DNA of 19,081 nt from a virus (Duplodnaviria > Heunggongvirae > Uroviricota > Caudoviricetes): IMG/VR virus record IMGVR_UViG_2711768040_000017; one strand, given 5' to 3'. Positions 5,601 through 19,081 of the stretch are shown here, piece by piece. The position numbers and the translations under genes are program-made. Below the pieces are notes generated by a model. The model was given only the letters and a program-made list of their open reading frames with translations. It did not search any database and was not told the origin of the DNA. How positions within the stretch are numbered: the first letter of the stretch is position 1; every line of letters starts with the position of its first letter.

Positions 5601-5893
5601 ACAAGAAATTCATATTCTTCTTTATCAATAAGCCCTTTATCGAAAAATTTCTTTAATTCAGAATAGCGTCGACCGACAGTATCAATTGCGGCACCAACTG
5701 GATCAATAGCTGCTTTTAATTTTGCGAGCGCGTTCTTCTCATCTTCTGTTGCCTTAGTCACTTTCCCTGCGCTATTTGCAGCAGTTTCCCCAGCCTGCGT
5801 CATTTTGACTAATGAGGAGGTCAGATTGTCAGCATTATTTTTCGCTCCAGTGCTATCAATAATTATTGCGAGACGCGAGGTTTGCTCTGCCAT
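2660..5893 (-). CDS. Tail tape measure protein (gpH-like), 1077 aa
   Basis: Long coiled-coil-rich N-terminal half with three tandem ~75-aa repeats, a hydrophobic/Gly-rich central segment, and a position directly downstream of the G/GT chaperone pair and upstream of the M/J tail-tip gene. AGGAG Shine-Dalgarno 8-9 nt before the ATG. Confidence 0.9.
5083..5710 (-). repeat. Three diverged tandem coding repeats (~225 bp each) inside the tape measure gene
   Basis: Protein repeats [12 protein letters not shown].., [19 protein letters not shown].., [19 protein letters not shown].. each followed by ..AQAxREAxKA. The DNA shows the repeated ggatcaa/gggtcga cores. Coordinates approximate. Confidence 0.5.
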
Positions 5894-5904
5894 TTATTAA
5901 AACT

Positions 5905-5938
5905 CCTGACAACAAAAAACCCACCGCGAAGTGGGTTT
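5905..5938 (-). terminator. Intrinsic-terminator-like hairpin in the 165-bp gap between the GT chaperone stop and the tape-measure start
   Basis: Minus strand reads aaacccac-ttcgcg-gtgggtttttt-gttgtc: 8-bp stem, 6-nt loop, T-rich tail, immediately upstream of the tape-measure RBS. Confidence 0.4.
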
Positions 5939-6058
5939 CAGGCGACATAATAGTAGATATAGCGATTACGAGGCCACGCAATGCTTTTCTCCAGGAGCAT
6001 CATCGATTTAATTAAAGACACCATCACATCTCTGTAACAGAGTGTACGTAATTAACAA

Positions 6059-6379
6059 CTACACACACTGCTCCTGAAAATACTGGTCATCCAGTGCAAA
6101 GATCACTGCTTCAAATTCATCGCGCTCAATCAATACCGGATGAGTGGCTAAATATTCATTTATCTCTGTCAGAGATAAAGGCAAAGGCACCCCAGCCATT
6201 CCAGCATAACGTCGGGCACGGGATATTACCGAATAGGCGTACAACAACTCCTTAAGCACCGGGTCTATTTCTGGTTCCGGTATCGGTGGCAACCTGAGTT
6301 TTTCTCGCTTCCATCTTGCCTTTTCCCCCCTTTCTCCCCCGAACTCCGATAACCACCGCTGGGCAGCTATGGCTTTTTT
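6059..6379 (-). CDS. T portion of tail assembly chaperone GT, reached by -1 frameshift from G; not independently initiated
   Basis: After slipping at aaaaaag, the -1 frame (gcc ata gct gcc cag cgg ...) runs uninterrupted into the 77-aa ORF frame (ttg cca ccg ata ccg = LPPIPEPEID) and ends 165 bp upstream of the tape measure gene. Confidence 0.55.
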   Translation of the reverse strand, partial: KKAIAAQRWLSEFGGERGEKARWKREKLRLPPIPEPEIDPVLKELLYAYSVISRARRYAGMAGVPLPLSLTEINEYLATHPVLIERDEFEAVIFALDDQYFQEQCV

Positions 6380-6801
6380 ATCGTATCCTGCTTCTGCTGC
6401 TCTTTACCCTGGGCGATGCTGGCTGCTTCTGCAAGGATCTGCCAGTACAACTCTGGATTCTGCTTAAGCAGCGCGATCCCTCGTTCTGCCGTATATTCCA
6501 GTGCAACCTCAACACCATTAACCAGTTCACCAACCCCTTTCCAGTCTTTCAGCAGATAACGAGCGGCATTATCAATGAGTAAATCATCAACAGAATCCAC
6601 CTCGGAAACCTTTGAAATATCAAACTCCTTCGTTCCGACGTGCAAACTGGCATCCATTTTCTCAATGTGGCGACGGATTAATGCATTACGGGAGCGATAC
6701 TGATCGTTATCGCTGCTTGCCACCAACAGTTTTAACCCGTCTATCCAGACTGCATGAGCAATTGATTCATCACGCAGCCGTTCATTCACGGTTTGCATCA
6801 T
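6367..6801 (-). CDS. Tail assembly chaperone (gpG-like), 144 aa
   Basis: Acidic small protein immediately upstream of the tape measure gene; its last codons (ata aaa aag cca tag) contain a canonical slippery heptamer. MMQ start, ATG at 6799-6801. Confidence 0.55.
   Translation of the reverse strand: MMQTVNERLRDESIAHAVWIDGLKLLVASSDNDQYRSRNALIRRHIEKMDASLHVGTKEFDISKVSEVDSVDDLLIDNAARYLLKDWKGVGELVNGVEVALEYTAERGIALLKQNPELYWQILAEAASIAQGKEQQKQDTIKKP
6373..6379 (-). other. Programmed -1 ribosomal frameshift slippery heptamer A_AAA_AAG (G to GT)
   Basis: Plus-strand ctttttt at 6373-6379 is aaaaaag on the minus strand, two codons before the G stop; the -1 frame is open for ~100 further codons. Confidence 0.55.
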
Positions 6802-8188
6802 TGATTTCCATCAACATTACACTCTGATTTTTTAATTCATCGATCACATCCTCTGGACGGGAATCCTGATCGATAAATTTCAACGCCTGCAACACCCGAA
6901 CCGCATCAATCTGACGTATATCACCGCCCTGACGCAATGACTGAACAGCCAGCGCGGAGGATGAGTCAAACACCTGGGCAGATACATCCAGTTCAGTGCG
7001 CACATCCACATTGCCACCGCAACTCTCTCCGCTCCATTCCGCCATTATCTGGAGAATATTATCGAGGGCATCTTCGAGGGAGTTCGCCATTGTATAAAGC
7101 GGCGAGTGTTCCTGCATCCGCTCTTCATTAGTCTGATCAACAGATTTGGTGGATGTATTTTCAGCCCGCAGAAGTTTAGCGCCGGCATGACGCATCTGAT
7201 TTTCCAGCTTCTCAAGTGATGTTTCGCCAGATTCTATCGCTGCGCCACTATGTTCAACATATTCGAGGCCATTTTTTGTTCTGTCCTCAAAAATCGTAGC
7301 CGTGGATGCACCAACCGTCAGTTCTTCATTCCTGTCCAGCCCGTAGGCCACCAGCAATGGAACGCGGGCAACATGAAGAATATTGTCCTGCTCGCTCTGG
7401 CTTTGCCAGTGCTTGATATTCAGCAAGCCAAGATTAAGCAATGGCGGTGTACCACGCATAAACCCTGTTTTCTTCGTATACAGTGTTACCAGAGGAATAT
7501 CATCACGGCTGGTATTCCATGACTCATGAAGCATCCAGACAGATTCGCCATTAGTACCTTCGCTGCGTCGATAAATTTCTACTCGACGGGGCATAATATG
7601 GCGGATCTGCTCCACCTTCTTCTGCCCGAAATCATCACCATCAATAATGATGACCTCTTTTATACGCAAATCAGTGAGAACAACTTTCCCTTTTTCAACT
7701 TTCGATTTCCATCCAATAACCTGGCGTGGATTCAGCATCGTAACGTACGGGCGACCACCGGCCGCGTTTTCATCGGCTTTTGTCCGAATCTCGTTCATAT
7801 CCGTTCGTGGATAGTCCACCAGCGCATGTGCCACACCATACTGAAATGCGAGACTGAAAAATTGCTGCGCCCACACATCCAGTCGGCTCCCCTCCATGTC
7901 GATATTTTCTGCATATTCCCTGATTTTTTCCGGCGTTTCCTCACTCAATACTGTCGGCTCTGCAAATATGCGCCCAATATTTTGTTTGATGCTTTCTTCA
8001 TACACAGGAAGTAACGTAGCCACAGACAGGCGTTTTTTATAAGCGTCTTCATCTTCATTAGGCCATTTGGGGAGATAATTTTCCCCCTGCCTGCGCATTT
8101 CAAGCGTACCGCCCATCAATGCGTCGTTAATATCCCACGCCTCCAGCATATCGTTATAGTCGAGGTTGGGTGTTGATATATCAGCCAT
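6782..8188 (-). CDS. Putative portal protein (468 aa), possibly C-terminally altered
   Basis: Starts 4 nt inside the end of the terminase large subunit gene (coupled), with portal-typical size and position. No specific motif recognised by eye. Its last 6 codons overlap the G chaperone start. Confidence 0.45.
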   Translation of the reverse strand: MADISTPNLDYNDMLEAWDINDALMGGTLEMRRQGENYLPKWPNEDEDAYKKRLSVATLLPVYEESIKQNIGRIFAEPTVLSEETPEKIREYAENIDMEGSRLDVWAQQFFSLAFQYGVAHALVDYPRTDMNEIRTKADENAAGGRPYVTMLNPRQVIGWKSKVEKGKVVLTDLRIKEVIIIDGDDFGQKKVEQIRHIMPRRVEIYRRSEGTNGESVWMLHESWNTSRDDIPLVTLYTKKTGFMRGTPPLLNLGLLNIKHWQSQSEQDNILHVARVPLLVAYGLDRNEELTVGASTATIFEDRTKNGLEYVEHSGAAIESGETSLEKLENQMRHAGAKLLRAENTSTKSVDQTNEERMQEHSPLYTMANSLEDALDNILQIMAEWSGESCGGNVDVRTELDVSAQVFDSSSALAVQSLRQGGDIRQIDAVRVLQALKFIDQDSRPEDVIDELKNQSVMLMEINDANRE

Positions 8189-8190
8189 AA

Positions 8191-9501
8191 TTAAATCCGA
8201 AGTGATGTGACTCTTCCGGTCGGTTTGACAATAGGGAATTGCTTAACGATGAAATAACCTCCGGCATCATTCGGGTGATCATTGCCAGATTTTTTATCAG
8301 GCTCCCCCTTATCATCCCAGACCTGTTGCTCCAGAGATTCGGCATATACCGGACAACGCTTCACATTAACTTTATAGCGACGCTCACCATTGGCATTGCA
8401 GAACATTGCATTCATTGAGTTAACGCGATCTTTTACTGGCGGGTTCGAGCTGTTCACCACAACGTTAAAACCTGCCTGCTTAAGCTGGGCTATATCCGTC
8501 GTACTTGCGTTACTTGATTTTCTGGAATCTCCGGAAGCATCTGGATAAATATAAATCTCCCTCACTTTCCGGTAATCATGCCCGTCATACAGCCAGAAGC
8601 GTTCTTTAATGAGGCGGATCATATCCGGCGTATCGTAGGCATTGATGATTTCAGTTACCGCACATGGAAGCCCCAAACGCAGCACATGGACGATTCCCGC
8701 CATCTTTCCAACGTTAAAATCCATCCCAATATAAATCGGCTCCCCTGGCTGCTCCACTTCTTCGCAATTATTCAGTTTCCGGTCAAACTGATGGTAAACA
8801 GTACCACTTGTCAGGTTAGTAAACCGTCCTAGAAGATAGGCTTTAATCAGCTCTGGAGGGTATGATTCAAGAAGTGAAGGAATGTAATCTGCTGGCAGGT
8901 TCTTTTCATTATCGAAAGTAGATGCCTGCACCAGACCATACAGTGAGGCCAGCTCTGTTTTTTCACGCACGGCTTTAACAAACTGCTCGTAGACAAATTT
9001 GAATCCTTCCGGCGTGGTTGTAACGTCAATACCGTTGCGAAGTCCATCAATCTTATAACGCATACGCGCAATTATCTTGCGCCACGCCGTTCTGGCTTTT
9101 TCCTTCGGCAAAATGTCCAGTTCATCCACCAGCGCATTACCAATTTTGAAACCGACGATCGTTTGTGGCTTCTCCATCGATCTGCAGATAGTGGTTCCCC
9201 GATACTGGCGTCCGTAATAAAAGTGAACCTCTTTATTTCCCTCATTAATTTTTACGTTCAATCCCCAGTCAGCAGCAACTTCTTCCACTGTAGGGTAAAA
9301 AATATCGCGAATTTGGGGATACGTTGGCGCAAAATATCCCTGATTTATACCTGGATGCTCCCAAATCCCCTTGCATATGCCGCCACACCCAACCCATGTT
9401 TTGCCCGAGCCAAAACCAGCAATATAGGCTTTAAATTTATGGGGCATTGAAAGAAATCGCGCCTGAGGCACATTAAGCGTCGGAGAGATCATCTTCATCA
9501 C
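8191..9501 (-). CDS. Terminase large subunit (436 aa)
   Basis: Walker A P-loop YIAGFGSGKTWVG near the N-terminus, acidic nuclease-type C-terminal half, and position between the small subunit and portal. Confidence 0.85.
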   Translation of the reverse strand: MMKMISPTLNVPQARFLSMPHKFKAYIAGFGSGKTWVGCGGICKGIWEHPGINQGYFAPTYPQIRDIFYPTVEEVAADWGLNVKINEGNKEVHFYYGRQYRGTTICRSMEKPQTIVGFKIGNALVDELDILPKEKARTAWRKIIARMRYKIDGLRNGIDVTTTPEGFKFVYEQFVKAVREKTELASLYGLVQASTFDNEKNLPADYIPSLLESYPPELIKAYLLGRFTNLTSGTVYHQFDRKLNNCEEVEQPGEPIYIGMDFNVGKMAGIVHVLRLGLPCAVTEIINAYDTPDMIRLIKERFWLYDGHDYRKVREIYIYPDASGDSRKSSNASTTDIAQLKQAGFNVVVNSSNPPVKDRVNSMNAMFCNANGERRYKVNVKRCPVYAESLEQQVWDDKGEPDKKSGNDHPNDAGGYFIVKQFPIVKPTGRVTSLRI

Positions 9502-10567
9502 TCCTTAATCTGGCATCAACCACATTAATATTGATCGCCACAGGCTGGGGATGTTCATTATCCTCCACCGTTTCGATCTCTTTGCGCAGCTTCTGGTTCT
9601 CTATTCTGCGCCGTTCAATTTCCAGTTCCTGTAGCCGCTTATCTGCACATAATGCCCCGCCAGCAGAAAGCAAACGCAACAATTCACGCCGGGCGGCAGC
9701 CTTATCCTCCAGCAGGATCTCAACACCGTATTTTCCGAGCTTTGACCCTGCATATAATTGCCGCGCATCCCCATCAAGCAGTGTGGTATCAGCCATATAA
9801 AGCTGTCCTGTTCCCTCACCGCAGCACTTCGGGCAATCAGGATTGGGTATGGCGTTATCAACAAAGCCGAGGCCTCCATATTCCGGCTCGGGTTTACCAT
9901 CTCTGGAGGCCTGTGCCGCAGCCTTATCGAATTCTGCAATATCACGCCACTGGTAGAGATGATTCTCGCCCCAGCAATAACGGCAGTTAACACGGCGAAA
10001 TTGTGCCAACTGATTGGGGTCGGCCTGGACAATGGCCATCAACTGGCTCACCAGTAAATCCAGGTCTGCGGTATAGCGTTTCTGGTACTGATTGCGGAAG
10101 TAGCTGATAGCACGATAAACCCTGGCATTTCTAAGCATACGGCTGGCGTTGCTGTTAGCTGTCGCACCTTGCCCCTCATAACCAGCCAGTCGGTATGCCT
10201 CTGTCGGCTTTTTCCCCTGAGCAACCAACATGGCGAATTTTGCCTGCTGGTCAGAAATACCGAATTCATCGGGGCAGAACGAAATTTCTTCCGTGTCCCC
10301 CTCAATCAGGAGTGCATCGGATACAGCCTTTTTTTTCTGAGATTTTCCGTTCTGCCTTTGCGCAGTCTGCGCAGTTTTTTTTCGCGCACTTTTTTGCGCA
10401 GTTTTGCGCATTTCTTTCTGCGCATTTTTCGGAGTTTTTTTGATGTAACGACGGGCTGTTGCGTAGTTCAGTCCCCTTGCTTCACACCATGCCACCGGAG
10501 ATATACCGGAGCGGGTGTATTCAGCAATATACTCCTGCTGCAACGCCCCCCAGTCCGGTCTGCTCAT
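9473..10567 (-). CDS. Putative terminase small subunit / DNA-packaging DNA-binding protein (364 aa)
   Basis: N-terminal HTH-like segment (..ISPVAWCEARGLNYATARRYIKK..), Lys/Arg-rich low-complexity linker, Cys cluster (CRYCWGENH .. CPKCCGEG), coiled-coil C-terminus; immediately precedes and overlaps the terminase large subunit gene. Confidence 0.45.
   Translation of the reverse strand: MSRPDWGALQQEYIAEYTRSGISPVAWCEARGLNYATARRYIKKTPKNAQKEMRKTAQKSARKKTAQTAQRQNGKSQKKKAVSDALLIEGDTEEISFCPDEFGISDQQAKFAMLVAQGKKPTEAYRLAGYEGQGATANSNASRMLRNARVYRAISYFRNQYQKRYTADLDLLVSQLMAIVQADPNQLAQFRRVNCRYCWGENHLYQWRDIAEFDKAAAQASRDGKPEPEYGGLGFVDNAIPNPDCPKCCGEGTGQLYMADTTLLDGDARQLYAGSKLGKYGVEILLEDKAAARRELLRLLSAGGALCADKRLQELEIERRRIENQKLRKEIETVEDNEHPQPVAININVVDARLRSDEDDLSDA
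10355..10430 (-). repeat. Cluster of six T(T/C)(T/C)GCGCA repeats within the terminase small subunit gene
   Basis: Plus strand carries tttgcgcag, tctgcgcag, ttcgcgcac, tttgcgcag, tttgcgcat, tctgcgcat within ~70 bp flanked by T-runs; it encodes the basic KTAQK/SARKK/TAQTAQRQ linker. Confidence 0.5.
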
Positions 10568-10570
10568 CAG

Positions 10571-10822
10571 TTAGTCCTGATTTTTATCCACCCTGAGTAG
10601 TTCGCGCAGAGCAAAGGCATCCCCTTTTCTGGCAAGCTTAAACAATGCCGCTCGTAACTCGGCTTCACCTTTCGCTCTGCCCTTACGGATGGCCGCATAA
10701 AAATCTGTCATTGCTTCCCGATTTTCTTTCAGTCGGTTCAGATCAACATCCAGAACGTCAGCGATTTGTTGTGCAGTCATCCGGCACGCTGCCAGAGACT
10801 CGACTTTCGAATACGGAATCAT
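10571..10822 (-). CDS. Small hypothetical protein (83 aa) with an HTH-like segment
   Basis: GGGGGTGA Shine-Dalgarno 4 nt before the ATG at 10822; MTAQQIADVLDVDLNRL resembles a helix-turn-helix. Overlaps the upstream gene end by 65 nt. Confidence 0.3.
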   Translation of the reverse strand: MIPYSKVESLAACRMTAQQIADVLDVDLNRLKENREAMTDFYAAIRKGRAKGEAELRAALFKLARKGDAFALRELLRVDKNQD

Positions 10823-11714
10823 TTGTCACCCCCATTGATATGCAGGGTGTCTTCTTCCTGTATTTTTCGTGAAGGATTTTTACTGCAGCGTTGTTCCAGG
10901 TGACCTGATGGTGAATGCGTTTATGGCTGGCACCCATCAGTGAGATTTTTACGCACGACGGCGAATACATGACGGAGTAAAAACTTTTAACGTAGGTTCC
11001 GGAATCCAGATACAGCTCGGTCATTCCGCCGCTGTTTTTCTGCGTCTGTTTCTGCCCTAACTGGACAGCACCGATCGTCATAAACAATTCACCACAGCGA
11101 CCGAGATTCGTGTACGTATTCACATCCTCGTTAATGCGCCCCATGAATGAGAACGGTCGATCAACCGAACAGATAAAGCTGTTCATTGCCTTGCGTTTCA
11201 CCCACGAAGCATGGCCGCCATTGTCACCAAGAAAATCCCCGCCCTGCGACATAGCGATGGAAAGCGCGGGTATTGATTCGTAATACGCCAGCATTTCAGA
11301 AAGGATCGCATCCAGTTTCCTTATCGGGAAATAGGCCTGGTCATAGTTGCGATCCACCCGAAACTGGAACTCGTGATAATCATCATCGAGCTGAATGAAG
11401 TATTTACACCCGACCAGTTTTGCCAGGTCGAAACAGGCATTACGGGCGTAAAAAATTGAGCGGCGATCACCAAAATTATCGGCTTCGTCAAAACGACTGG
11501 CAATATCGGCTTTGGAAAATACCAGCACCTGTTCACCAAATTCAGCCATGTACTGATGCCGTGTCTTATCTTCATCATCAACAACGATAAAAATTTTCCC
11601 GGTATAGCCAGCACGACGCAACGTCCGGTAAGTCAGAACTTTGTCCGGTCGCCCGTGAGTCAGAATAAAGGCGCAAAAATCATCACGCATATTCCTCCTC
11701 CTCCTCCCCGCCAT
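10758..11714 (-). CDS. Hypothetical protein (318 aa) with DXD-type acidic motifs; possible nucleotide-sugar transferase-like fold
   Basis: Hydrophobic strand then Gly (CAFILTHGRPDK), then IFIVVDDEDK and YFIQLDDDYHEF; translationally overlaps the ParB-like gene upstream. Assignment is by motif only. Confidence 0.3.
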   Translation of the reverse strand: MAGRRRRNMRDDFCAFILTHGRPDKVLTYRTLRRAGYTGKIFIVVDDEDKTRHQYMAEFGEQVLVFSKADIASRFDEADNFGDRRSIFYARNACFDLAKLVGCKYFIQLDDDYHEFQFRVDRNYDQAYFPIRKLDAILSEMLAYYESIPALSIAMSQGGDFLGDNGGHASWVKRKAMNSFICSVDRPFSFMGRINEDVNTYTNLGRCGELFMTIGAVQLGQKQTQKNSGGMTELYLDSGTYVKSFYSVMYSPSCVKISLMGASHKRIHHQVTWNNAAVKILHEKYRKKTPCISMGVTNDSVFESRVSGSVPDDCTTNR

Positions 11715-12477
11715 GCATGATCTCCACCATGCGCTGCGTCATTCGGACAAATCCATTTTCAATAGCCTGCTGATAATCAATGATCACCAGCGCCGACTCC
11801 TCGAAAAGGCACTGAATTTCAGCGGGGGCATGAGCGTAATAGTCCGCAATTCTGCTGAAATTAAACACTGTGTGACGTTCTGCCGCACACAGGAGGAATT
11901 TCTCAATATCAGGATCAAGGGACGCCGAACGTATCCGGCTGATCAGCTCCTGAGTTTTCGTATCGTCGTACAGTTCACTGATATCCGGTTTACCGCCCGA
12001 CGGCTCATAAACAGGCGTATCAATTTTCGTCGTATACGGCTCCTCCTCATTTCCTGTACCGGGCAAAACATCCGTCAACAGTTCATCAATTTCTGTCGGG
12101 ATGAAGCCTGTCAGGGAGACATCAAAATCAGCATTGATTAGGTCCGACAGCTCCATCCGCAACAGATCTTCATCCCAGCCAGCATTCATCGGCAGGCGAT
12201 TATCTGCCAGGCGGTACGCCTTTTTCTGCTCATCCGTCAGGCCAGACAGAACAATGACCGGAACAGAATCCATTTTGAGCATTTCAGCCGCCATAACACG
12301 ACCGTGACCCGCAATAATTTCGCCCTTTTCGTCAATCAGCACCGGATTAGTCCAGCCGAATTGCTTAATACTTTCTACCAGTTGTGCCACCTGCTCAGGG
12401 CTGTGCGTCCTGGCGTTGTGCGCATACGGTGACAATTCTTGTAATGGGCGATAGACTATCTTTAATTTCTCGCTCAT
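11683..12477 (-). CDS. ParB-like nuclease domain protein (264 aa)
   Basis: N-terminal ParB/sulfiredoxin-type motif ..NPVLIDEKGEIIAGHGRVMAA.. and acidic C-terminus (GGEEEEEYA). Confidence 0.7.
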   Translation of the reverse strand: MSEKLKIVYRPLQELSPYAHNARTHSPEQVAQLVESIKQFGWTNPVLIDEKGEIIAGHGRVMAAEMLKMDSVPVIVLSGLTDEQKKAYRLADNRLPMNAGWDEDLLRMELSDLINADFDVSLTGFIPTEIDELLTDVLPGTGNEEEPYTTKIDTPVYEPSGGKPDISELYDDTKTQELISRIRSASLDPDIEKFLLCAAERHTVFNFSRIADYYAHAPAEIQCLFEESALVIIDYQQAIENGFVRMTQRMVEIMHGGEEEEEYA

Positions 12478-12504
12478 ACAGCCTTGCTTTATGAATAAAA
12501 CGCA

Positions 12505-12528
12505 CCCCAGCAGCCAGTGCTACTGGGG
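12505..12528 (-). terminator. Possible terminator hairpin downstream of trkG
   Basis: ccccag / ctgggg inverted repeat followed on the minus strand by tgcgttttatt; large loop, so weak. Confidence 0.25.
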
Positions 12529-12614
12529 ACGGAGGGGTTGCTGGTAAAGTTAGGTATTGGATCAATGAGTGAGTCAACATAATATTAAACTCACAATTAT
12601 AAATCAGCCATATA

Positions 12615-14090
12615 TTAGGAGCGCCAAAAAAAACCTGAAAACAATATAATAACAGGATAAATTTCAAGGCGACCAAGAATCATAGCTATGCACATTAAAC
12701 ATTTTGCAATGTCATTAAGCACTCCGAATGACGATGCAGTAGCCCCAAAACCTAATCCCATATTATTAATACATGCAGCCACTGTTGCAAATGATGTAAG
12801 AAAATCATATCCCATACCATTTAACACCAGTATAAAAAACACCGTGAAGAGAGTATAAAGAAAAAAGAAACTCCATACAGACCTCATTACACGATCTGTA
12901 ACTATCTTCCCTCCTACATTTACACTCAACAACGCTCTGGGATGAGAAAGCTGATTTATCTCGTGTTTGCTTTGTTTGAAAAGTATAAGAAATCGAAGTG
13001 ACTTAATTCCACCACAAGTTGAACCTATACATCCCCCAAAGAAACTTGACAACAGCAAAAACACTATCGTGTGCGTGGGCCAACTTGCATAATCCTGCGT
13101 AGCTAAACCATTATCAGTGAGCATGGAGCTGGCAAGAAAAAACGAATGAATAAAACTTCCATGCAAGTCATACATACCTATATGCCAGACCTGGAAAGAG
13201 GTAACAATGATCACCCCTAAGGCTATTAACAGAAAGAAACGAAGTTCAATATCTCTGATTAAAGGTTTTATCGTTTTCCTGCTAATAACAATATACCAAA
13301 GAGTGAAGTTGAAAGCCGATAGCAGGGAAAAAGAACCAGCCACCAGCTCAACCAAATAGTTATTAAAATATCCGATACTCTCGCTATGAGTTGAGAAACC
13401 ACCAAGCGAAACTGTGGAAATCCCGTGACAAATAGCATCAAACAAAGGCATTCCTGCAAGTCTATAACAGACAATACAAGCAATACCTAATAAAGAATAA
13501 GTTATCCACAGTGTCCGTGACGTATCGGCCAGGCGGGGAGTGAGTTTGTCATCCTTAAATGGCCCCGGCATTTCTGACTGATAAAGCTTTGCACCACCAA
13601 TACCCAATAATGGCAATACAGCAACCGCCAGAACAATAACTCCTAAACCACCTATAAAATTTAACTGTGACCGATAGTACAAATATGCCCGAGGTAATGA
13701 ACTAACATCATCAATTACAGTTGCTCCTGTTGTTGTTATTCCAGAAACCCCTTCAAACAGAGCATCAATGAACGTTAAATTAAGTTCTGAGTCAATCCAT
13801 AAAGGGAATGCACTAATAACAGAAAACAAAATCCAAAACATTACAATTATAATAAACCCATCACGGGTACGTAATTGAATGCCAGATTTCTTAGTTGTAT
13901 ACCACGCTCCGCCACCAATGCAAAAAAATATAACGAAAGTTATAAAGAAAACGAACAGGCTTTTTTCTTTATAAAACAATGCTACAACCATTGGTGGCAA
14001 CATTGAAAGACTATAGAGCCAAACCAGGAACCCACACATATGAGTAACAACTCTTACATGAGATGTATTCATATCTAAATATTCTTTCAA
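12615..14090 (-). CDS. trkG: Potassium uptake protein TrkG (Trk-system membrane subunit); true start probably the internal MNTSHVRV at 14072
   Basis: Polytopic membrane protein with repeated pore-loop glycine motifs; translation matches E. coli TrkG as recalled (MNTSHVRVVTHMCGFLVWLYSL..). Markedly AT-rich relative to flanking phage genes. Confidence 0.85.
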   Translation of the reverse strand: MKEYLDMNTSHVRVVTHMCGFLVWLYSLSMLPPMVVALFYKEKSLFVFFITFVIFFCIGGGAWYTTKKSGIQLRTRDGFIIIVMFWILFSVISAFPLWIDSELNLTFIDALFEGVSGITTTGATVIDDVSSLPRAYLYYRSQLNFIGGLGVIVLAVAVLPLLGIGGAKLYQSEMPGPFKDDKLTPRLADTSRTLWITYSLLGIACIVCYRLAGMPLFDAICHGISTVSLGGFSTHSESIGYFNNYLVELVAGSFSLLSAFNFTLWYIVISRKTIKPLIRDIELRFFLLIALGVIIVTSFQVWHIGMYDLHGSFIHSFFLASSMLTDNGLATQDYASWPTHTIVFLLLSSFFGGCIGSTCGGIKSLRFLILFKQSKHEINQLSHPRALLSVNVGGKIVTDRVMRSVWSFFFLYTLFTVFFILVLNGMGYDFLTSFATVAACINNMGLGFGATASSFGVLNDIAKCLMCIAMILGRLEIYPVIILFSGFFWRS

Positions 14091-14209
14091 TTATAACCAC
14101 CTTGCTGCAATATTATGATTATACTGTATAAAATTTAACTCCTCTTAGATCTTACTTCACTGTTCCTTATGAAACAATCATCAAAATGAATCATATTGTA
14201 GTTAAGATT

Positions 14210-14674
14210 TTACTTTAAACACTGCTCGGTTATGTATTGCTGAGCACCTTCAAGTTGGGCCTGCATCATTACCAGTCGTTCCCGGAGGGTGAAATAATCC
14301 CGTTCAGCGGTGTCTGCCAGTCGGGGGGAGGCTGCATTATCCACGCCGGAGGCGGTGGTGGCTTCACGCACTGACTGACAGACTGCTTTGATGTGCAACC
14401 GACGACGACCAGCGGCAACATCATCACGCAGAACATCATTTTCAGCTTTCGCATCAGCTAACTCCTTCGTGTATTTTGCATCGAGCGCAGCAACATCACG
14501 CTGACGCATCTGCATGTCAGTAATTGCCGCGTTCGCCAGCTTCAGTTCTCTGGCATTTTTGTCGCGCTGTTCTTTGTAGGCGATGGCGTTATCACGGTAA
14601 TGATTAACACCCCATGACAGGCAGACGACGATGCAGATAACCAGAGCGGAGATAATCGCGGTTACTCTGTTCAT
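14210..14674 (-). CDS. Rz: Spanin inner-membrane subunit Rz (i-spanin)
   Basis: Near-identical to lambda Rz as recalled (..[74 protein letters not shown]..). ATG at 14672-14674 overlaps the R stop in an ATGA arrangement. Confidence 0.9.
14269..14454 (-). CDS. Rz1: Spanin outer-membrane lipoprotein subunit Rz1 (o-spanin), embedded in Rz in the +1 frame
   Basis: [18 protein letters not shown] lipobox then Pro-rich [27 protein letters not shown], matching lambda Rz1 as recalled. Confidence 0.85.
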
Positions 14675-15168
14675 TGCTGACCCCACAAACAGATTTCACG
14701 CTCAATCTCACGACGAGTCATGAGACCTTTCCATTGCTTACCGCCAGCATATGTCCAGCGACGTAGCTGATCACATGCGCCTTTGATATCGCCCTGGTTT
14801 ATTTTGCGAAGAAGCGTCGATGTTCTGAAATTGCCAGCACCCACGTTGTAAACGAATGAGTAAAGAGCGCCGCGCGTTGTTTCCGGTATATCGACTTTGA
14901 TGTACGGGTTAATTTGTCTGGCGACCGTGGCAAGGTCTTTATTCAAGAGTGTTTTGCATTCTGCTTTGGTATACGTTTTACCGAGCATGATGTCTTTTCC
15001 TGTATGCCCGTGACATACAGTCCATACACCAACAATATCTTTGTATGGTATGTAGCTGACACCTTCCAGACCATCGTTACCACTTGGGCCAGTGATTAAC
15101 ACTGATGCTATAGCAATTGCTCCGCCACCAATAGCAGCAGCAACGACTTTTCGTAATGATGGAGGCAT
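14671..15168 (-). CDS. R: SAR endolysin (phage-21 R-type lysozyme), 165 aa
   Basis: N-terminal signal-anchor-release segment [23 protein letters not shown] followed by a T4-lysozyme-like domain (..EG..Y.D..G..T.G.GHT..); start ATG overlaps the holin stop (TAATG). Confidence 0.9.
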
Positions 15169-15383
15169 TATTCACCTCTCGCAGCCTTGCGCTTATCTTC
15201 TTTAATCTTGAAATAAAGGTTTGTCAGGTACGTCAGCAGGCCAAATACCAGACTACCCAGCACACCGATTGCAGCCCACTGTGACGGAGTTACTCTATCG
15301 AGCAACTGTAAAAACCAGTAGCCAGCACTGCCTGCGGAGGTGCCGTAGGCAATGCCTGTTGAAATTTTGTCCATGGATTTCAT
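15168..15383 (-). CDS. S: Pinholin / antiholin with dual-start motif (phage-21 S-type), 71 aa from MKSMDK; holin from the internal MDK
   Basis: [58 protein letters not shown] matches S21 as recalled; GGAGG Shine-Dalgarno 6 nt before the ATG at 15381-15383. The track's longer N-terminal extension starts at GTG and is unlikely. Confidence 0.85.
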
Positions 15384-15483
15384 AGCCTCACCTCCGCACG
15401 GAACGGATGGCATAGTTATTATGTGTAGGCTTTCAGACACATCAATCAGAGCCTTAATTGATATATATGCTGGAGACGATGCA

Positions 15484-15509
15484 ATATAAAAAGCTCGCCG
15501 TAGCGAGCT
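15484..15509 (-). terminator. Intrinsic terminator between the downstream lipoprotein gene and the holin gene
   Basis: Minus strand reads agctcgc-tacg-gcgagct followed by ttttatatt: 7-bp GC-rich stem, 4-nt loop, U-tract. Confidence 0.5.
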
Positions 15510-15634
15510 AATAAAATGTATTTCTCTGATATTATGTTTATTTGTATTAGCTCAGACTTGACATCACAGGTTTCGTATATAGAACATCATCAAATCTGTC
15601 AGTTTGCTATGAATGAGATATAGTACTTGAAGAG

Positions 15635-16030
15635 CTAACCTCGCATGTCAAAGCCAGATTTCTGAAAATCTCTGTAGACTTCCGGATTGTTGAAGGCCGG
15701 AAATTTGGCTTTATGAGCTGCGGACTTTATCGCTTCGCAATAGGCTTTATCACCGTTACTGGTAGATATTTTTAACGCCGTGCCATCCTGAGAGAATTCC
15801 ATATGCAACCTGCATTTTTTCCCTTTCCAGTTATGCGGCTCATCAAGTTTGGCATTAATTGCAGCTCTGATTCCCCGCGCTTGCGCCCCCCATTCATCCT
15901 GATCATCCCAGCGTCCTGAACTGCAACTACCTGTAGCAGTAGTTTTGTGGCAATCTGAAGGGTGTAAAGGTGTGCATCCCGCAACAAAACCGACCCAAAA
16001 AGTCAACATAACGATTTTCTTTAATCCCAC
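15635..16030 (-). CDS. Lipoprotein (131 aa) with a diverged TolA C-terminal domain III-like domain; GTG start
   Basis: Signal peptide MGLKKIVMLTFWVGFVAGC (lipobox VAGC); GAGGAG Shine-Dalgarno 6 nt upstream. C-terminal pattern I.AAINAKL...W.GKKC.L...F..DG....S...GD.A.C.A...A...A.FP....PEVY..F parallels the paralog upstream and TolA-III. Confidence 0.55.
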   Translation of the reverse strand: MGLKKIVMLTFWVGFVAGCTPLHPSDCHKTTATGSCSSGRWDDQDEWGAQARGIRAAINAKLDEPHNWKGKKCRLHMEFSQDGTALKISTSNGDKAYCEAIKSAAHKAKFPAFNNPEVYRDFQKSGFDMRG

Positions 16031-16180
16031 TTCTTGCTCCTCAATCCATTAAAATCTCAGCAATAGTAGTTGTTACGTCCGCCACTGGCTCAGAGCTGAC
16101 TATCCGCTAAATTTAGCTCAGTGCCGTAGCTGTGTCAGAACAAACCTAAGCCGAAACCGTTTATTACAAAACAATAAATA

Positions 16181-16609
16181 TCAGGGTTTAAAATCCAGCA
16201 CCCCATTTTGAAATACTTTATATACTTCCGGCGAAGGGGGGGCAGGTATATCAGCATTCTTTATCGCATTCATCGCTTCACGACATAAATCGAGGTCTCC
16301 ACTTTCTCTTTTAACCTCCAGTAGAAGGCCATTCGGGGCCATATGCATTCTCAGTGTACACTCTTTTCCTGAATACTTACTCGCATCCCCGAACTGTTTT
16401 TCGATGGCGCTCTTGATTTGATGGGCATACAGACGGATATCCTCACTAACATCAGAAGTACGTTCAGATGAACTCACATACTGTGTCTCTATTGCTTTAT
16501 CGGAGTAATATGATGTACGGTCATGATAATTTGTCGATACAGCATCAGTGCACCCGATAATAATCCCACTAATAATCAACGTAAGAATTGATGCGCTACG
16601 AAAACCCAT
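16181..16609 (-). CDS. Lipoprotein (142 aa) with a TolA C-terminal domain III-like domain
   Basis: Signal peptide MGFRSASILTLIISGIIIGC (lipobox IIGC, Thr at +2). The C-terminal 85 aa (YAHQIKSAIEKQFGDASKYSGKECTLRMHMAPNGLLLEVKRESGDLDLCREAMNAIKNADIPAPPSPEVYKVFQNGVLDFKP) align almost residue for residue with the E. coli TolA C-terminus as recalled (YAGQIKSAIESKFYDASSYAGKTCTLRIKLAPDGMLLDIKPEGGDPALCQAALAAAKLAKIPKPPSQAVYEVFKNAPLDFKP). Confidence 0.7.
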   Translation of the reverse strand: MGFRSASILTLIISGIIIGCTDAVSTNYHDRTSYYSDKAIETQYVSSSERTSDVSEDIRLYAHQIKSAIEKQFGDASKYSGKECTLRMHMAPNGLLLEVKRESGDLDLCREAMNAIKNADIPAPPSPEVYKVFQNGVLDFKP

Positions 16610-16638
16610 TTTTCCTCACATATGTCATATAGTAAAGG

Positions 16639-16668
16639 ATTATATATACCGTTGTTTTGGACGCTCAA
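16639..16668 (-). promoter_or_regulatory. Putative sigma70 promoter for the upstream TolA-like lipoprotein gene
   Basis: On the minus strand TTGAGC (-35) - 18 bp - TATAAT (perfect -10), about 30 nt upstream of the GAGGA Shine-Dalgarno and ATG. Confidence 0.3.
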
Positions 16669-17196
16669 ACAGCGAATCAGATCAAATAAAACGCACATTT
16701 GTTAACATTTACACAAAGTCTGCGTGGGATATTCTGAAAGAATATCCATAATGTGGAGAGAATCTATTGAAGTGCATGGTGCCGGGTGCCTCCCGGTGAA
16801 CAAAATGTTCGTGATACCTGTCGGCGACAGAAAAGGTTAATGGTATCACCCCACCGCACAGGGGGATTCACCATGCAGGAGTTTTCTTAGCAAACTCACT
16901 GCGCGCCCGGCAACTCCCAACCACATAAAATGCGGAGTTTGTGGTATTTATGCATATAACTCGCAGGAATTATCTTAAAAAACTGATGTCGATCCGGATT
17001 AAAAAGAAGCAGGTCATCATCAGATGACTGGAAAAAAGGAAAAAAAAAATACTCATCATACAGTTTTGATTGCAGGGATGAGCCTGCTATGCACAATATG
17101 CAGAATATAAGCAAGATAAAAATATGCAGGCATATTATTTCGGATTTTGTTATTAACACAACCTTTTTAATAATCATTTGGCATACAATAAACCAG

Positions 17197-17226
17197 TCCA
17201 AAAAGAACCGCCTAAACAGGCGGTTG
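17197..17226 (-). terminator. Intrinsic-terminator-like hairpin (second terminator downstream of the Q gene)
   Basis: Minus strand reads aaccgcc-tgttta-ggcggtt followed by ctttttgg. Confidence 0.4.
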
Positions 17227-17545
17227 GTCAATACAAAGGATGCTTCGTCTTTATTATAGTAATCTGAGGCGTCGGGTGTCTTGTATCAGACAACATATTG
17301 TCCCGCTAAACAGCGAATTACAAACCACCCTGCAATGATCTCTCATCTCATTTTATATGAGTTGACGACATCAGGATAACGCATCATCAGCCCCTGCCAA
17401 GAAATATCAAAACTCCCGCCAGCAATGTGTTATCACAATATTGTAAAAAAAACACAGCACCGAAACTATAACTGGTCTCTGTTATAATTTGGAGCAGAAA
17501 GACCAGTTGCCCAACTAGCAGCATTCTCCCCTGCTTTCCTGACGT

Positions 17546-17572
17546 AAAAAAACCGCATTAAGCGGTTTTTTT
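17546..17572. terminator. Bidirectional terminator hairpin ~80-105 nt downstream of the Q stop (tR'-like)
   Basis: aaaaaaa-ccgc-attaa-gcgg-ttttttt: perfectly symmetric A7/T7 arms around a short GC stem, so it presents a U-tract in either orientation. Confidence 0.5.
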
Positions 17573-17573
17573 A

Positions 17574-17652
17574 CGATGTCCATGTCTGCAATCCGCCTCG
17601 CGATACAGCTGTGCGAAGCATAGCAAAATTGAAGCAGTTTATACGTAAGAAA
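17574..17652 (-). promoter_or_regulatory. Putative late-promoter (PR'-like) and Q-utilisation region
   Basis: 79-bp noncoding segment between the Q stop and the first terminator, with TTGATT and TATAAA/TTCAAT-like hexamers on the minus strand. Placement is by analogy to lambda, 82 and 21; hexamers are weak. Confidence 0.25.
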
Positions 17653-18195
17653 TCAAGCCATTTTCTCAGCAAATGATTCACGCATGGGAATATATAGGGC
17701 ATACTCAGCAACAGCTAACCAATTAGCAATCCGTTTTTCGCATGTGCTAAAACACCACTCTGGGTGTCCATCATTTAGCAATTCAGCCATTTTGCGCTTA
17801 GTCATCCCCCGCCCTTCATAGCGTTGCCGGAGAATGCAAATCAATCCTGGATGCTCTGCCAGCACCTCACTTATGACTCGATCAATACATAACGCCTCTG
17901 CATCAGTACAATGCGCCAGCCAGCTCTTTTGCTTGCCGTTGATCATCTCTCGCAAAAACGCTTCCAGCTCAGCTTTCTCTATTCCCGCTTTTTTCATTCT
18001 ACGCAGGGCTTCATTAATGGCTGTTTTCGTCAGTTTTTTGGATGCCAACAACTGATTGAACATATTCCCTGACCTGCCACCGCCAATATACGACCAGCGC
18101 CCCCACATACGTAGTTTTCCCTGAATCCAGACACTTTCCAGCGTGGTGAGGCGAAGGTGTTCTCCGCTTTTTCCTGTATTCGTTGGGTAAATCAT
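17653..18195 (-). CDS. Putative late-gene antiterminator (Q-like), 180 aa
   Basis: Last gene before a short leader plus terminator and the lysis genes; Cys pairs (HC..C, C..C) could form a zinc site; start overlaps the upstream gene (coupled). No unambiguous family motif recognised. Confidence 0.45.
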   Translation of the reverse strand: MIYPTNTGKSGEHLRLTTLESVWIQGKLRMWGRWSYIGGGRSGNMFNQLLASKKLTKTAINEALRRMKKAGIEKAELEAFLREMINGKQKSWLAHCTDAEALCIDRVISEVLAEHPGLICILRQRYEGRGMTKRKMAELLNDGHPEWCFSTCEKRIANWLAVAEYALYIPMRESFAEKMA

Positions 18196-18482
18196 AAATG
18201 ACCTTTCTTTCTCCAGATTTCTTGTGTGCGAAAAACCCCTTCAGCATGCATCAGGCGCAATTCTTCTTTGGTGTAATCGCTGGTTTTTACCCGCCCGTCG
18301 ATTAGATCGTGGCATGAGCTACAGGCTATCGCCGCCTGCATATCGTGTGGTTTTGTCGCTGTTCCGCACGTCCCCGCCAGCCTGTAATGCGCCAGCACAG
18401 AGGTTTCGGGATTGTGATTGCAGTAGCCAGGGATTCTGATCTGGCACATCTGGCCTTTAGCCGCTTTACGTAAATTCACCAT
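18192..18482 (-). CDS. Cys-rich small nin-region protein (96 aa), YbcO/DUF1364-like putative zinc-binding nuclease
   Basis: CQIRIPGYC .. CSSCHDLIDGR cysteine/histidine pattern; size and position match the nin-region small nuclease genes of lambdoid prophages. Confidence 0.4.
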   Translation of the reverse strand: MVNLRKAAKGQMCQIRIPGYCNHNPETSVLAHYRLAGTCGTATKPHDMQAAIACSSCHDLIDGRVKTSDYTKEELRLMHAEGVFRTQEIWRKKGHL

Positions 18483-19081
18483 TACGCAAACTCCAGTAGT
18501 TGTGCGGCCACATTTTCAACTTCCTCCTGAGAGGAGAATTTACGAAACAGAATCCAGTTCCACAGCACATTCAGTACAGATTTATAAACCTGCTGAAACT
18601 CGACTTCGTCCATATTCGCAAAAGCGATGGATTTTGCCCGACGCCCACGGCTACCGTCCGGATAAATATGCTCGGTGTAAAATCCGGCCTGAATGGTTAC
18701 CCACTCGCGGAAAGCCTCAAACGACTTTAGCAACGCCGTATCCCGGGTTCTACGAGTCGCAACGGTGTTAAGGTATTGCTCTGCGGCATCACTCAGGGCT
18801 GGCGTGTGTTCCCGACCAACTGATTCGCACAGGTAATCAACGAAACCAGACAGCAGTTCTCGTTCGCGAGGCGTGATCGCCCCACCGACCGGAGTCCAGT
18901 AATCGAATCCCAGTTGCAGGAGTTTGAAAAAACGCTTGTGGAATGCGTAGTTACGCACACGCTTAAAGTCTGCGTGTATCCACTCACCTATTTTGATTTG
19001 ATGCAGAAAATCGCAACTCTCCGGCGTCGCCGGGAGAAGTAAACCAGAAGAAGTTTGTTTGACCAGTTGTATATGCGCCAT
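18482..19081 (-). CDS. Hypothetical nin-region phage protein (199 aa)
   Basis: ORF whose ATG sits at the window edge and whose stop overlaps the next gene start; no family recognised with confidence. Confidence 0.35.
   Translation of the reverse strand: MAHIQLVKQTSSGLLLPATPESCDFLHQIKIGEWIHADFKRVRNYAFHKRFFKLLQLGFDYWTPVGGAITPRERELLSGFVDYLCESVGREHTPALSDAAEQYLNTVATRRTRDTALLKSFEAFREWVTIQAGFYTEHIYPDGSRGRRAKSIAFANMDEVEFQQVYKSVLNVLWNWILFRKFSSQEEVENVAAQLLEFA

Follow-up and report, generated by a model that had tools for sequence, protein, structure and literature searches.

The Q-to-holin interval of a 19,081-nt stretch of DNA (the window) from a tailed virus of the Caudoviricetes, IMG/VR record IMGVR_UViG_2711768040_000017, was analyzed. 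The source is a Rac-type lambdoid prophage of Escherichia coli, and all genes in the window lie on the minus strand. Between a Q-like gene and the holin gene, the interval accommodates two small lipoprotein genes, here denoted lp1 and lp2, an element of the STnc100 family of prophage small RNAs (sRNAs), and several promoter-like and terminator-like sites. Both lipoproteins are copies of TolA's C-terminal domain (domain III, TolAIII) on putative lipid anchors, and the best explanation of the locus, held by us at about even confidence, is that they would act as un-energised TolAIII decoys carried within a mosaic of phage cargo. The limits of the interval were established against the phages vB_EcoS-683R6 and vB_EcoS-673R7 (683R6 and 673R7) and the prophage of strain M19. 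Its features, in the direction of transcription, are as follows.

17653-18195, minus strand: Q-like gene, left anchor of the cargo slot (Pfam DUF1133, 7e-107; PHROG 753, 6e-79)
17652-15384: Q-to-holin interval, 2,269 nt
17595..17652, minus strand: 58-nt block conserved with Q (homology with M19, 673R7 and 683R6), putative late promoter/Q-loading region (pR'-like)
17546..17572, minus strand: strong hairpin with A- and T-runs, putative tR'-like terminator of a short late leader
17194..17225, minus strand: second intrinsic-terminator-like hairpin (stem 17206-17225), remnant of a lost tRNA module
16720..16906, minus strand: STnc100-family prophage sRNA element, variant without a 3' terminator (Rfam RF02076)
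16639..16668, minus strand: sigma-70 promoter-like site TTGAGC-18-TATAAT, 10/12 match, ~30 nt 5' of lp1
16181..16609, minus strand: lp1, 142-amino-acid (aa) lipoprotein with signal peptide and lipobox IIGC, linker of ~34 aa and TolAIII copy
16110..16138, minus strand: weak promoter-like site CTGACA-17-TAAATT in the lp1-lp2 spacer, 9/12 match, within chance
15635..16030, minus strand: lp2, 131-aa lipoprotein with GTG start, lipobox VAGC, Cys-x8-Cys linker and a diverged TolA domain III
15484..15509, minus strand: closing intrinsic-terminator-like hairpin with T-run, ~100 nt ahead of the holin ATG
15168-15383, minus strand: phage-21-type holin with ATG at 15383, right anchor of the cargo slot (Pfam Phage_holin_2_1, 4.5e-35, P21 holin S family)

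An original prediction, made from the sequence without database searches, had placed two lipoprotein genes here, and each product indeed opens with a signal peptide that terminates in a lipobox (IIGC in lp1, VAGC in lp2; pattern [LVI][ASTVI][GAS]C). The N-termini read MGFRSASILTLIISGIIIG-C-TD and MGLKKIVMLTFWVGFVAG-C-TP, and the lipobox Cys is nearly invariant in both families. The residue at position +2 after the lipidated Cys decides the membrane to which a lipoprotein is sorted, Asp(+2) leading to inner-membrane retention. Since this residue is Thr, not Asp, in both proteins, lp1 and lp2 are predicted to be outer-membrane lipoproteins. What that reading had missed is the TolA-domain identity of both. 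Residues 55-142 of lp1 align without a gap to residues 334-421 of E. coli TolA (E 5e-28, 59% identity), and the protein matches the Pfam TolA C-terminal model (PF06519) at 2.4e-23 with 82.6 bits, relative to a cut-off of 25. In the alignment, lp1 retains TolA Y340, I344 and I348 together with D418, F419 and K420 of strand beta3 (numbering and roles from PMC4339652), and LLEVKR stands in for the TolA colicin A box LLDIKP. The second protein is more remote, being ~30% identical to TolAIII and 29% identical to lp1, with a match to PF06519 at 1.3e-14 (54.6 bits, cut-off 25). Its AlphaFold2 (AF2) model is confident over residues 44-131 and superposes on E. coli TolAIII (3QDP) with a TM-score of 0.92 and a root-mean-square deviation of 1.1 Å; the next structural matches are TolAIII complexes with colicin A, IF1 g3p and M13 g3p. 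The Cys pair that forms the TolA disulfide is invariant in lp1 and lp2.

Full-length TolA models (tolA_full/PRK09510) match only at their C-terminal end, at model positions 265-387, and lp1 scores 107.8 bits against PRK09510, below the cut-off of 213. TolA domains I (transmembrane) and II (long helical) are absent from both proteins, implying no coupling to TolQR. Accordingly, lp1 and lp2 are not TolA orthologues, and the PGAP label “tolA” is misleading. It can also be observed that PGAP labels lp1 a tolA pseudogene (“incomplete; missing N-terminus”) in strain CI5 (locus L002, 4260-4520) and in many RefSeq genomes. The ratio of nonsynonymous to synonymous substitution rates (dN/dS) is 0.26 for lp1, window against the M19 copy, and 0.08-0.15 for lp2 against the plasmid, Enterobacter and Serratia copies at dS 0.5-1.1, from which the pseudogene label for lp1 is judged to be wrong. 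Both genes are intact and under purifying selection. PGAP begins lp2 at an internal ATG, losing the positively charged start of the signal peptide; the plasmid homologues of lp2 have ATG where the gene in the window has GTG. The lp2 linker TPLHPSDCHKTTATGSCSSGRWDDQD (residues 20-45; window 15893-15970) is among the most conserved parts of its family, with a mean entropy of 0.20. It is modelled at a pLDDT (AF2 confidence) below 50, and its two extra Cys (C-x8-C) reappear in remote clusters. The linker may be a second binding epitope, beyond its role as a tether. A possible resemblance of the linker to the colicin E9 TolB box, a short motif, comes with a Trp-Trp spacing that is off by one and was set aside.

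That the Q-to-holin interval is a lambdoid cargo site, as had been proposed, is borne out by near-isogenic phages, which keep the flanks and carry quite different DNA in the interior. The Q protein is 94-96% identical in 683R6 and 673R7, and the DNA of the Q region is 98% identical in M19. Homology with all three extends from Q to 17591-17594 and then stops. In 683R6 it returns at 15394, 10 nt ahead of the holin ATG; in 673R7 it does not return until the Rz gene, further downstream. The distal part of the lysis cassette, as well as trkG, is common to these two phages and the window; the lysis module of M19 differs. The comparison of this interval across related prophages, suggested with the original prediction as a means of defining the insertion boundaries, therefore sets them at 17591-17594 and 15394. 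Because homology ends after Q and returns near the holin, with an interior that differs in each relative, window 17591-15395 is a replaceable cargo interval of the late operon. The interior comprises two tRNAs in 683R6 and a 189-aa hypothetical protein in 673R7. In M19 it holds four tRNAs, lp1, two more STnc100 copies 3' of lp1, a nanS-p esterase and DUF826. The relatives carry two to four tRNA genes, and none is found in the window. M19 has lp1 without lp2, and its homology terminates exactly at the lp1 stop codon. Phage mEp460_ev081, which has a different, lambda-type Q, becomes homologous at 16897 and remains so across lp1, lp2 and the holin; it is the only one of 50,697 deposited phage genomes with lp1. 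A 66%-identical lp1 variant is located behind a lambda-type Q, between tRNAs and nanS-p, which is the stx position, and lp1 variants of 65-91% identity occupy Q-S intervals (Q to the holin gene S) behind differing Q types. One variant (P0023) is chimeric, with an N-terminal half like that of the 66%-identity lineage (P0026) joined to a C-terminal half identical to lp1 of the window, indicating recombination inside the gene.

The patchy base composition reported previously was found as well: the GC content is 0.32-0.39 in the AT-rich stretches and 0.46 in the island at 16700-16899, compared with 0.47-0.56 in the flanking Q and lysis genes. In the sense of Hendrix and Juhala, a moron is an extra transcription unit in a phage operon. 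The interval varies among close relatives at one junction (683R6, 673R7, M19), its composition of 0.32-0.46 is unlike that of its neighbours, and at the sequence level it has a downstream terminator of its own (15484-15509). To read the locus as a moron in the Q-S cargo slot is thus largely right in outline. The interval is, further, a mosaic in which at least four modules can be told apart. The first would be a late-promoter leader with the tR'-like hairpin at its end, and the second the tail of a tRNA module whose tRNAs are gone. The third would be an STnc100 element without its own terminator, fused to lp1, and the fourth lp2 with the closing terminator. Since M19 carries lp1 only and ~600 plasmids carry an lp2 homologue only, lp1 and lp2 are separately mobile modules. 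An open reading frame at 16896-17231 (111 aa, TTG start) in the AT-rich spacer was rejected as a further cargo gene; it has no Pfam or PHROG match, and a 58-nt indel in M19 breaks its frame. LT-II phages were set aside as comparators, the LT-IIb genes of SerU-LTIIb being located after the endolysin, outside the Q-S slot.

Three hairpins, each followed by a T-run, had been described at this locus, and all are present, at -19.7 kcal/mol for 17546-17572 (z -5.9 vs shuffles), -14.4 kcal/mol for 17206-17225 (z -2.2) and -13.0 kcal/mol for 15492-15509 (z -4.1). Over the 5-kb region, terminator-like sites (5 vs 3.9±1.7 expected) and promoter-like sites (13 vs 10.5±4.1 expected) show no excess over chance. 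The proposal that the hairpins bracket the moron holds for 15484-15509, ahead of the holin, and fails for 17546-17572 and 17206-17225, which belong to other modules. The first lies ~80 nt past Q, behind the conserved 58-nt block, in which an extended -10-like motif, TGcTATGCT, can be read. Differing hairpins with T-runs occur in the relatives at a matching distance from Q, within 30-40 nt of the block; the sequence is AAAAAAACCGCTTAATGCGGTTTTTTT in the window and AACCCGCCAT(T/C)GAGCGGGTTTT in M19 and 683R6. Because it follows a block conserved with Q, and because the hairpins of the relatives differ yet keep their position, 17546-17572 looks like the late-operon terminator tR' and not a moron bracket. 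Q, the conserved block and the position-keeping hairpin have the layout expected for lambdoid Q/pR'/tR' control, all of them as putative elements. PHROG 753, to which the Q-like protein belongs, is described as “anti-termination protein Q-like”. The protein reaches 26.4 bits against Pfam Phage_antitermQ, a threshold-level match at a cut-off of 26, and is 94-96% identical in Rac-type phages, whose records say antitermination protein Q. Its similarity to the solved Q21 is faint and N-terminal only (E 0.29), too faint for an assignment via solved structures, which was dropped.

M19 and 683R6 have a homologue of the second hairpin, and there it closes the tRNA module. As the window is without tRNAs, its hairpin is the leftover terminator of a lost module. 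A promoter-like site, AAGACA-18-TATAAT (17282..17253, 10/12), stands ~25 nt 5' of it; the two could yield an RNA of ~45 nt, the pair is kept in M19, and no Rfam match was obtained for it. Two Rfam candidates were dismissed as noise, isrK on the plus strand over the tR' hairpin (20 bits, gathering score 50) and STnc350 over the start of lp2 (22 bits, gathering score 60). The closing hairpin has a 7-bp stem, 5 pairs of which are GC, and its tail reads TTTTTAT; it is retained in mEp460_ev081.

The “GC-rich island” of the original prediction is the STnc100 element, the identity of which had been missed there. The match to RF02076 extends over the full model (positions 1-206) with 86.6 bits, above the gathering score of 47 (E 1e-17). 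The family is related to PasD (bioRxiv 10.64898/2026.05.13.724894) and overlaps the Hfq-bound sRNA EcOnc27 (PMC12711010); a copy is located 75 nt 3' of stx2B in Stx2 phages (PMC12370729), and copies are transcribed in uninduced EDL933, one of them confirmed by Northern blot (PMC5331693). In the window, the canonical GC-rich 3' terminator is replaced by GGATATTC-TTTCA-GAATATCC, without a T-run. A GC-rich hairpin followed by a T-run ends 97 of 107 copies not linked to lp1 and none of the 10 lp1-linked copies, all of which possess an AT-rich 3' hairpin without a T-run. Lacking a terminator, the copy in the window would permit transcription to continue into lp1, and it may serve as a 5' leader of lp1 rather than as a free-standing sRNA. 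Among ~120 IMG/VR loci with an STnc100 core, most cores are located 5' of nanS-p, ten 5' of lp1 and a few 5' of a holin. The homology of mEp460_ev081 starts (16897) near the 5' end of the element (16906). This onset, together with the varied downstream genes of the IMG/VR loci, implies that STnc100 elements mark where cargo modules meet. Three copies occur in the M19 prophage (locus L004, 4436-4609, 5331-5535 and 5586-5793), one 5' and two 3' of lp1, before nanS-p. This triplet suggests that the element acts as a homology patch for the exchange of cargo.

The near-consensus promoter TTGAGC-18-TATAAT ascribed to the first lipoprotein gene was located at 16668..16639, matching at 10 of 12 positions. 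A match of at least 10/12 at 15-80 nt 5' of a fixed start codon occurred in 1.35% of 2,000 Markov-shuffled sequences, so the placement of the lp1 promoter (p ~0.014) is to be regarded as suggestive, not as proof. The strong Shine-Dalgarno sequences noted for both genes can likewise be read, as GAGG-4 nt-ATG for lp1 and GAGGAG-6 nt-GTG for lp2. The weak site in the lp1-lp2 spacer lies outside the segment common to the plasmid homologues, which begins at 16060. As no hairpin separates the two genes, their co-transcription is likely. In the lysogen, lp1 and lp2 would be read from TTGAGC-18-TATAAT, by read-through from STnc100, or by both routes, and the terminator at 15492-15509 would keep this transcription off the holin gene. 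A promoter within the late operon ahead of the holin must be insulated, and the closing hairpin would be rightly placed for that purpose. Upon induction, Q-modified polymerase from the late promoter would pass all three hairpins.

Homologues of lp2 are widespread. On ~600 plasmids, including pO157, a homologue with 87% nucleotide identity from the Shine-Dalgarno sequence on was found. On IncK2/Z and related IncK/B/O/Z plasmids with I-type transfer, it is located directly 3' of the nikA(mobA)-nikB relaxase genes and is co-oriented with them (loci L005 and L006, 5995-6426); on pO157 it adjoins a nikB remnant near toxB (L003, 4995-5426). In Citrobacter, Enterobacter, Serratia, Klebsiella and Raoultella, the family further comprises at least 368 clusters (90% identity), and its members are 78-89% identical across these genera. 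In Serratia marcescens, the homologue lies directly 5' of GmrSD_N and HEPN (RiboL-PSP/MAE_28990) genes (L130, 5001-7736), a setting resembling a defence island. E. coli has no core copy, genes of the lp1/lp2 type being found on prophages and plasmids only. A profile search of 1.84 billion representatives returned 588 proteins. Among the best 148 of these, 94 are no longer than 165 aa, 59 of which possess a lipobox; short TolAIII proteins of 120-150 aa formed dozens of clusters at 50% identity.

Around the cargo slot, the following genes were assigned.

18482-19081, minus strand: DUF1367 gene (Pfam)
18192-18482, minus strand: YbcO-family gene (Pfam)
14671-15168, minus strand: lysozyme (Pfam)
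14210-14686, minus strand: Rz (Pfam)
12615-14090, minus strand: trkG, potassium transporter (TrkH family, 5e-145)
10758-12477, minus strand: ParB_N-domain gene, then TET-associated glycosyltransferase (TAGT, 6e-35)
6782-8188, minus strand: portal (DUF4055)
2660-5893, minus strand: tape measure

The lysis genes are followed 3' by trkG, the ParB-like gene, terminase, portal, tape measure and a J-type tail tip. The holin corresponds to essD in the PGAP annotation. Its N-terminus, MKSM, can be read as a dual-start motif, and that of the lysozyme is hydrophobic and rich in Gly and Ala, resembling a signal-anchor-release (SAR) domain; judged from these N-termini, the two appear to resemble a phage-21-type pinholin/SAR-endolysin pair. 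A trkG gene directly 3' of the spanin gene is hallmark cargo of the Rac prophage, and the match between K-12 Rac and the window is limited to the trkG/ynaK/tape-measure remnant part. The ParB_N and TAGT genes, between trkG and the terminase, may form part of a DNA-modification module. Within window 2660-8188, the tape-measure gene comes almost directly after the portal, the usual genes between them being absent, and strain FDAARGOS_1285 covers query range 1-15398 over ~25.4 kb, roughly 10 kb longer. For these two reasons the prophage carries a deletion and is probably defective. At least 80% of the 19-kb window was found in 577 of 5,426 complete E. coli genomes, and at least 80% of the cargo interval in 450 of them, mostly at 99% identity or above.

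Several known ligands exploit the domain that lp1 and lp2 copy. The g3p-N1 domains of Ff and IF1, like colicin N and the N-terminus of TolB, bind TolAIII by adding a strand to beta3, while colicin A binds beta2 (PMC7391070; PMC4339652). The tolQRA genes are strictly needed for infection by filamentous phages (PMC13596461), and TolAIII targeted to the periplasm makes E. coli leaky and perturbs the envelope (PMC6195910). The structure of the IF1 g3p-TolAIII complex is available as PDB 2X9A. I-type pili are the receptors for the TolA-dependent filamentous phage If1; the placement of lp2 homologues on plasmids with I-type transfer agrees with a decoy role. In the work of Levengood-Freyermuth et al. 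of 1993, periplasmic TolAIII reportedly also gives tolerance to group A colicins. In the mechanism proposed here, lipidated lp1 and lp2 would be sorted to the outer membrane, beneath which the TolAIII domain would hang on its linker of ~30 aa. Tethered in this way, without TolQR and the proton-motive force, it could not be energised. Such a decoy would be first to catch ligands bound for TolA: group A colicins by their translocation domains and filamentous phages by the N1 domain of g3p. Their capture would stall import, and the lysogen would become tolerant. More tentatively, and at somewhat less than even confidence, lp1 and lp2 may represent an undescribed class of mobile-element immunity, in which lipid-anchored TolAIII mimics, placed below the outer membrane, intercept Tol-dependent invaders such as group A colicins, related bacteriocins and filamentous phages specific for pili.

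A number of observations weigh against the decoy explanation. The lp2 protein has diverged at most of the side chains with which TolA contacts its ligands. TolA Y352H together with V407E weakens TolB binding (PMC2707214), and Y352 appears, assuming a numbering offset of one residue, to be equivalent to the Tyr of KFYDAS; at this position the lp1 family has Gly, Lys or Arg, and the lp2 family Asp, Asn or Val. The replacement might spare the host Tol-Pal system. A decoy also binding the TolB N-terminus could harm the host. The literature yielded no study and no published function of TolA-like lipoproteins, decoys or mimics encoded by prophages or plasmids, no match to lp1 or lp2 was obtained in PADLOC-DB 2.0 at E ≤0.01, and the PHROG family of the cargo, phrog_5772, is described as “unknown function”. 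Known exclusion and defence families, Cor/Llp among them, were considered and gave no match in Pfam, the PHROG annotation or PADLOC. The 10 terminator-less STnc100 copies are near-identical and hence count as a single evolutionary event. The Enterobacter homologue of lp2 stands alone at a fixed place on the chromosome, surrounded by housekeeping-type genes, and with such a stable locus a physiological role in Tol-Pal fits as well as defence. Regarding transcription, the -10 of the lp1 promoter is TGTAAT in M19, with G at the critical second position, and the DNA upstream of the 66%-identical homologue (variant P0028) is unrelated. On this evidence the lp1 promoter is not conserved, for which reason autonomy of the cargo in the lysogen is plausible but unproven.

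These points bear on the rival explanations to different degrees. It is unlikely, in our estimate, that no autonomous unit exists, in which case promoter match and hairpins would be incidental and the Q-dependent late transcript the only one to include lp1 and lp2, irrespective of what the proteins do. Such an account would agree with the chance-level counts of promoter-like and terminator-like sites over the region, the degraded -10 in M19 and the unrelated DNA upstream of the P0028 variant. It agrees less well with the placement of the promoter, with a closing hairpin of z -4.1 exactly between the cargo and the holin gene, with a GC content of the cargo unlike that of the flanks, and with upstream STnc100 family members that are transcribed without induction in EDL933, the copy in the window being without a terminator. 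Decay of tolA into fragments is very improbable and is rejected at the sequence level. Such decay is what the PGAP pseudogene calls in CI5 and many other genomes would imply, as would the restriction of matches with the TolA equivalog hidden Markov models to the C-terminal end; both genes nevertheless have intact frames with Shine-Dalgarno sequence, signal peptide and lipobox, dN/dS is 0.08-0.26, both TolA disulfide Cys are kept, the lp2 domain is predicted to fold confidently, and dozens of divergent clusters have this architecture too.

The remaining two alternatives accept the TolAIII domain and differ in what it would do. Expressed late, shortly ahead of lysis and chiefly from the Q-dependent transcript, lp1 and lp2 could be envelope weakeners, their TolAIII domains titrating the TolB N-terminus away from TolA, disabling Tol-Pal, loosening the outer membrane and aiding the spanins, virion release or vesicles. 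Their position in the late operon, immediately 5' of the holin-endolysin-spanin cassette, suits this proposal, as do the leakiness of E. coli with periplasmic TolAIII (PMC6195910) and the binding of TolB to the beta3 site that lp1 conserves (PMC7391070). We nevertheless consider it improbable: homologues of lp2 stand alone in Enterobacter and Serratia or follow plasmid relaxase genes, with no lysis genes near; lp2 is set off from the holin gene by a terminator; neither family retains the Tyr linked to TolB binding; and the prophage has lost head and tail genes, yet the cargo interval persists in the 450 genomes mentioned above, which favours a benefit in the lysogen. The stand-alone homologues on chromosomes and plasmids, together with this retention in a deleted prophage, favour a benefit outside lysis. 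Slightly less probable again is a physiological modulator of Tol-Pal, a docking site at the outer membrane for TolB or CpoB by which Pal mobilisation or envelope homeostasis would be tuned, in which case mobile elements have merely acquired a host gene. Identities of 78-89% for the lp2 family across five genera of Enterobacterales, the fixed chromosomal locus in Enterobacter and the dozens of short TolAIII clusters, with a lipobox in 59 of 94 short matches, are in keeping with such a role. The restriction of E. coli copies to prophages and plasmids, the repeated capture at classic cargo sites that is typical of defence or competition genes, and the defence genes adjoining the Serratia copy argue the other way.

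Comparison with known systems clarifies what is shared and what is not. Relative to E. coli TolAIII (PDB 1S62, 3QDP, 1TOL, 2X9A), lp1 is 59% identical without gaps and the lp2 fold reaches a TM-score of 0.92; the disulfide is kept in both and the beta3 ligand strand in lp1. The difference from TolA is that a putative lipid anchor and a short linker replace domains I and II, and that the KFYDAS Tyr is replaced. Engineered secreted TolAIII likewise perturbs Tol-dependent processes. Cor (phi80, N15, HK022, mEp167) and Llp (T5) are also small phage-encoded outer-membrane lipoproteins, which shield the lysogen or infected cell by acting, on the periplasmic side, against an entry route of phages and colicins. 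They have no sequence or fold relationship to lp1 and lp2, and act on the FhuA receptor, whereas lp1 and lp2 are proposed to mimic the periplasmic co-receptor TolA; the comparison concerns a possible mode of action, not family membership. With known Q-S morons (the stx operon of Stx phages, bor and lom of lambda, gp15 of HK97), the locus shares its slot, 3' of Q, the late promoter and tR' and 5' of the holin, together with its variability among otherwise near-identical phages, its lower GC content and its predicted promoter and terminator. The likeness to stx extends to one lp1 variant exactly at the stx position, between tRNAs and nanS-p. What sets it apart from those morons is its content, two lipoproteins with a TolA domain, accompanied by neither a toxin nor any relative of Bor, Lom or gp15. 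Its parts, STnc100 with lp1 on the one hand and lp2 on the other, are mobile separately and make the cassette a mosaic, and its two upstream terminators come from other modules. As for the STnc100, PasD and EcOnc27 sRNAs, the full Rfam model is matched here and the class of position is like that of copies 3' of stx2B and 5' of nanS-p. The difference from canonical STnc100 lies in the AT-rich 3' hairpin without a T-run, as in every lp1-linked copy.

Cargo in the Q-S slot is textbook biology, and as a moron the locus is ordinary. The cargo itself, a mobile pair of TolAIII lipoproteins with an STnc100 leader, appears to be unstudied. The presence of STnc100 elements at the joints of cargo modules bears on how Stx-type cargo regions are reshuffled. 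If the decoy explanation is true, it would represent a new way for prophages and conjugative plasmids to shield their hosts from colicins and from filamentous phages that exploit pili, and the proteins would provide a natural tool with which to separate the ligand-binding functions of TolA. If the immunity interpretation is also true, the family would be a widespread trait of competition and defence, carried on prophages in the stx slot, on IncK/B/O/Z plasmids and pO157, and on the chromosomes of Enterobacter, Citrobacter, Serratia and Klebsiella.

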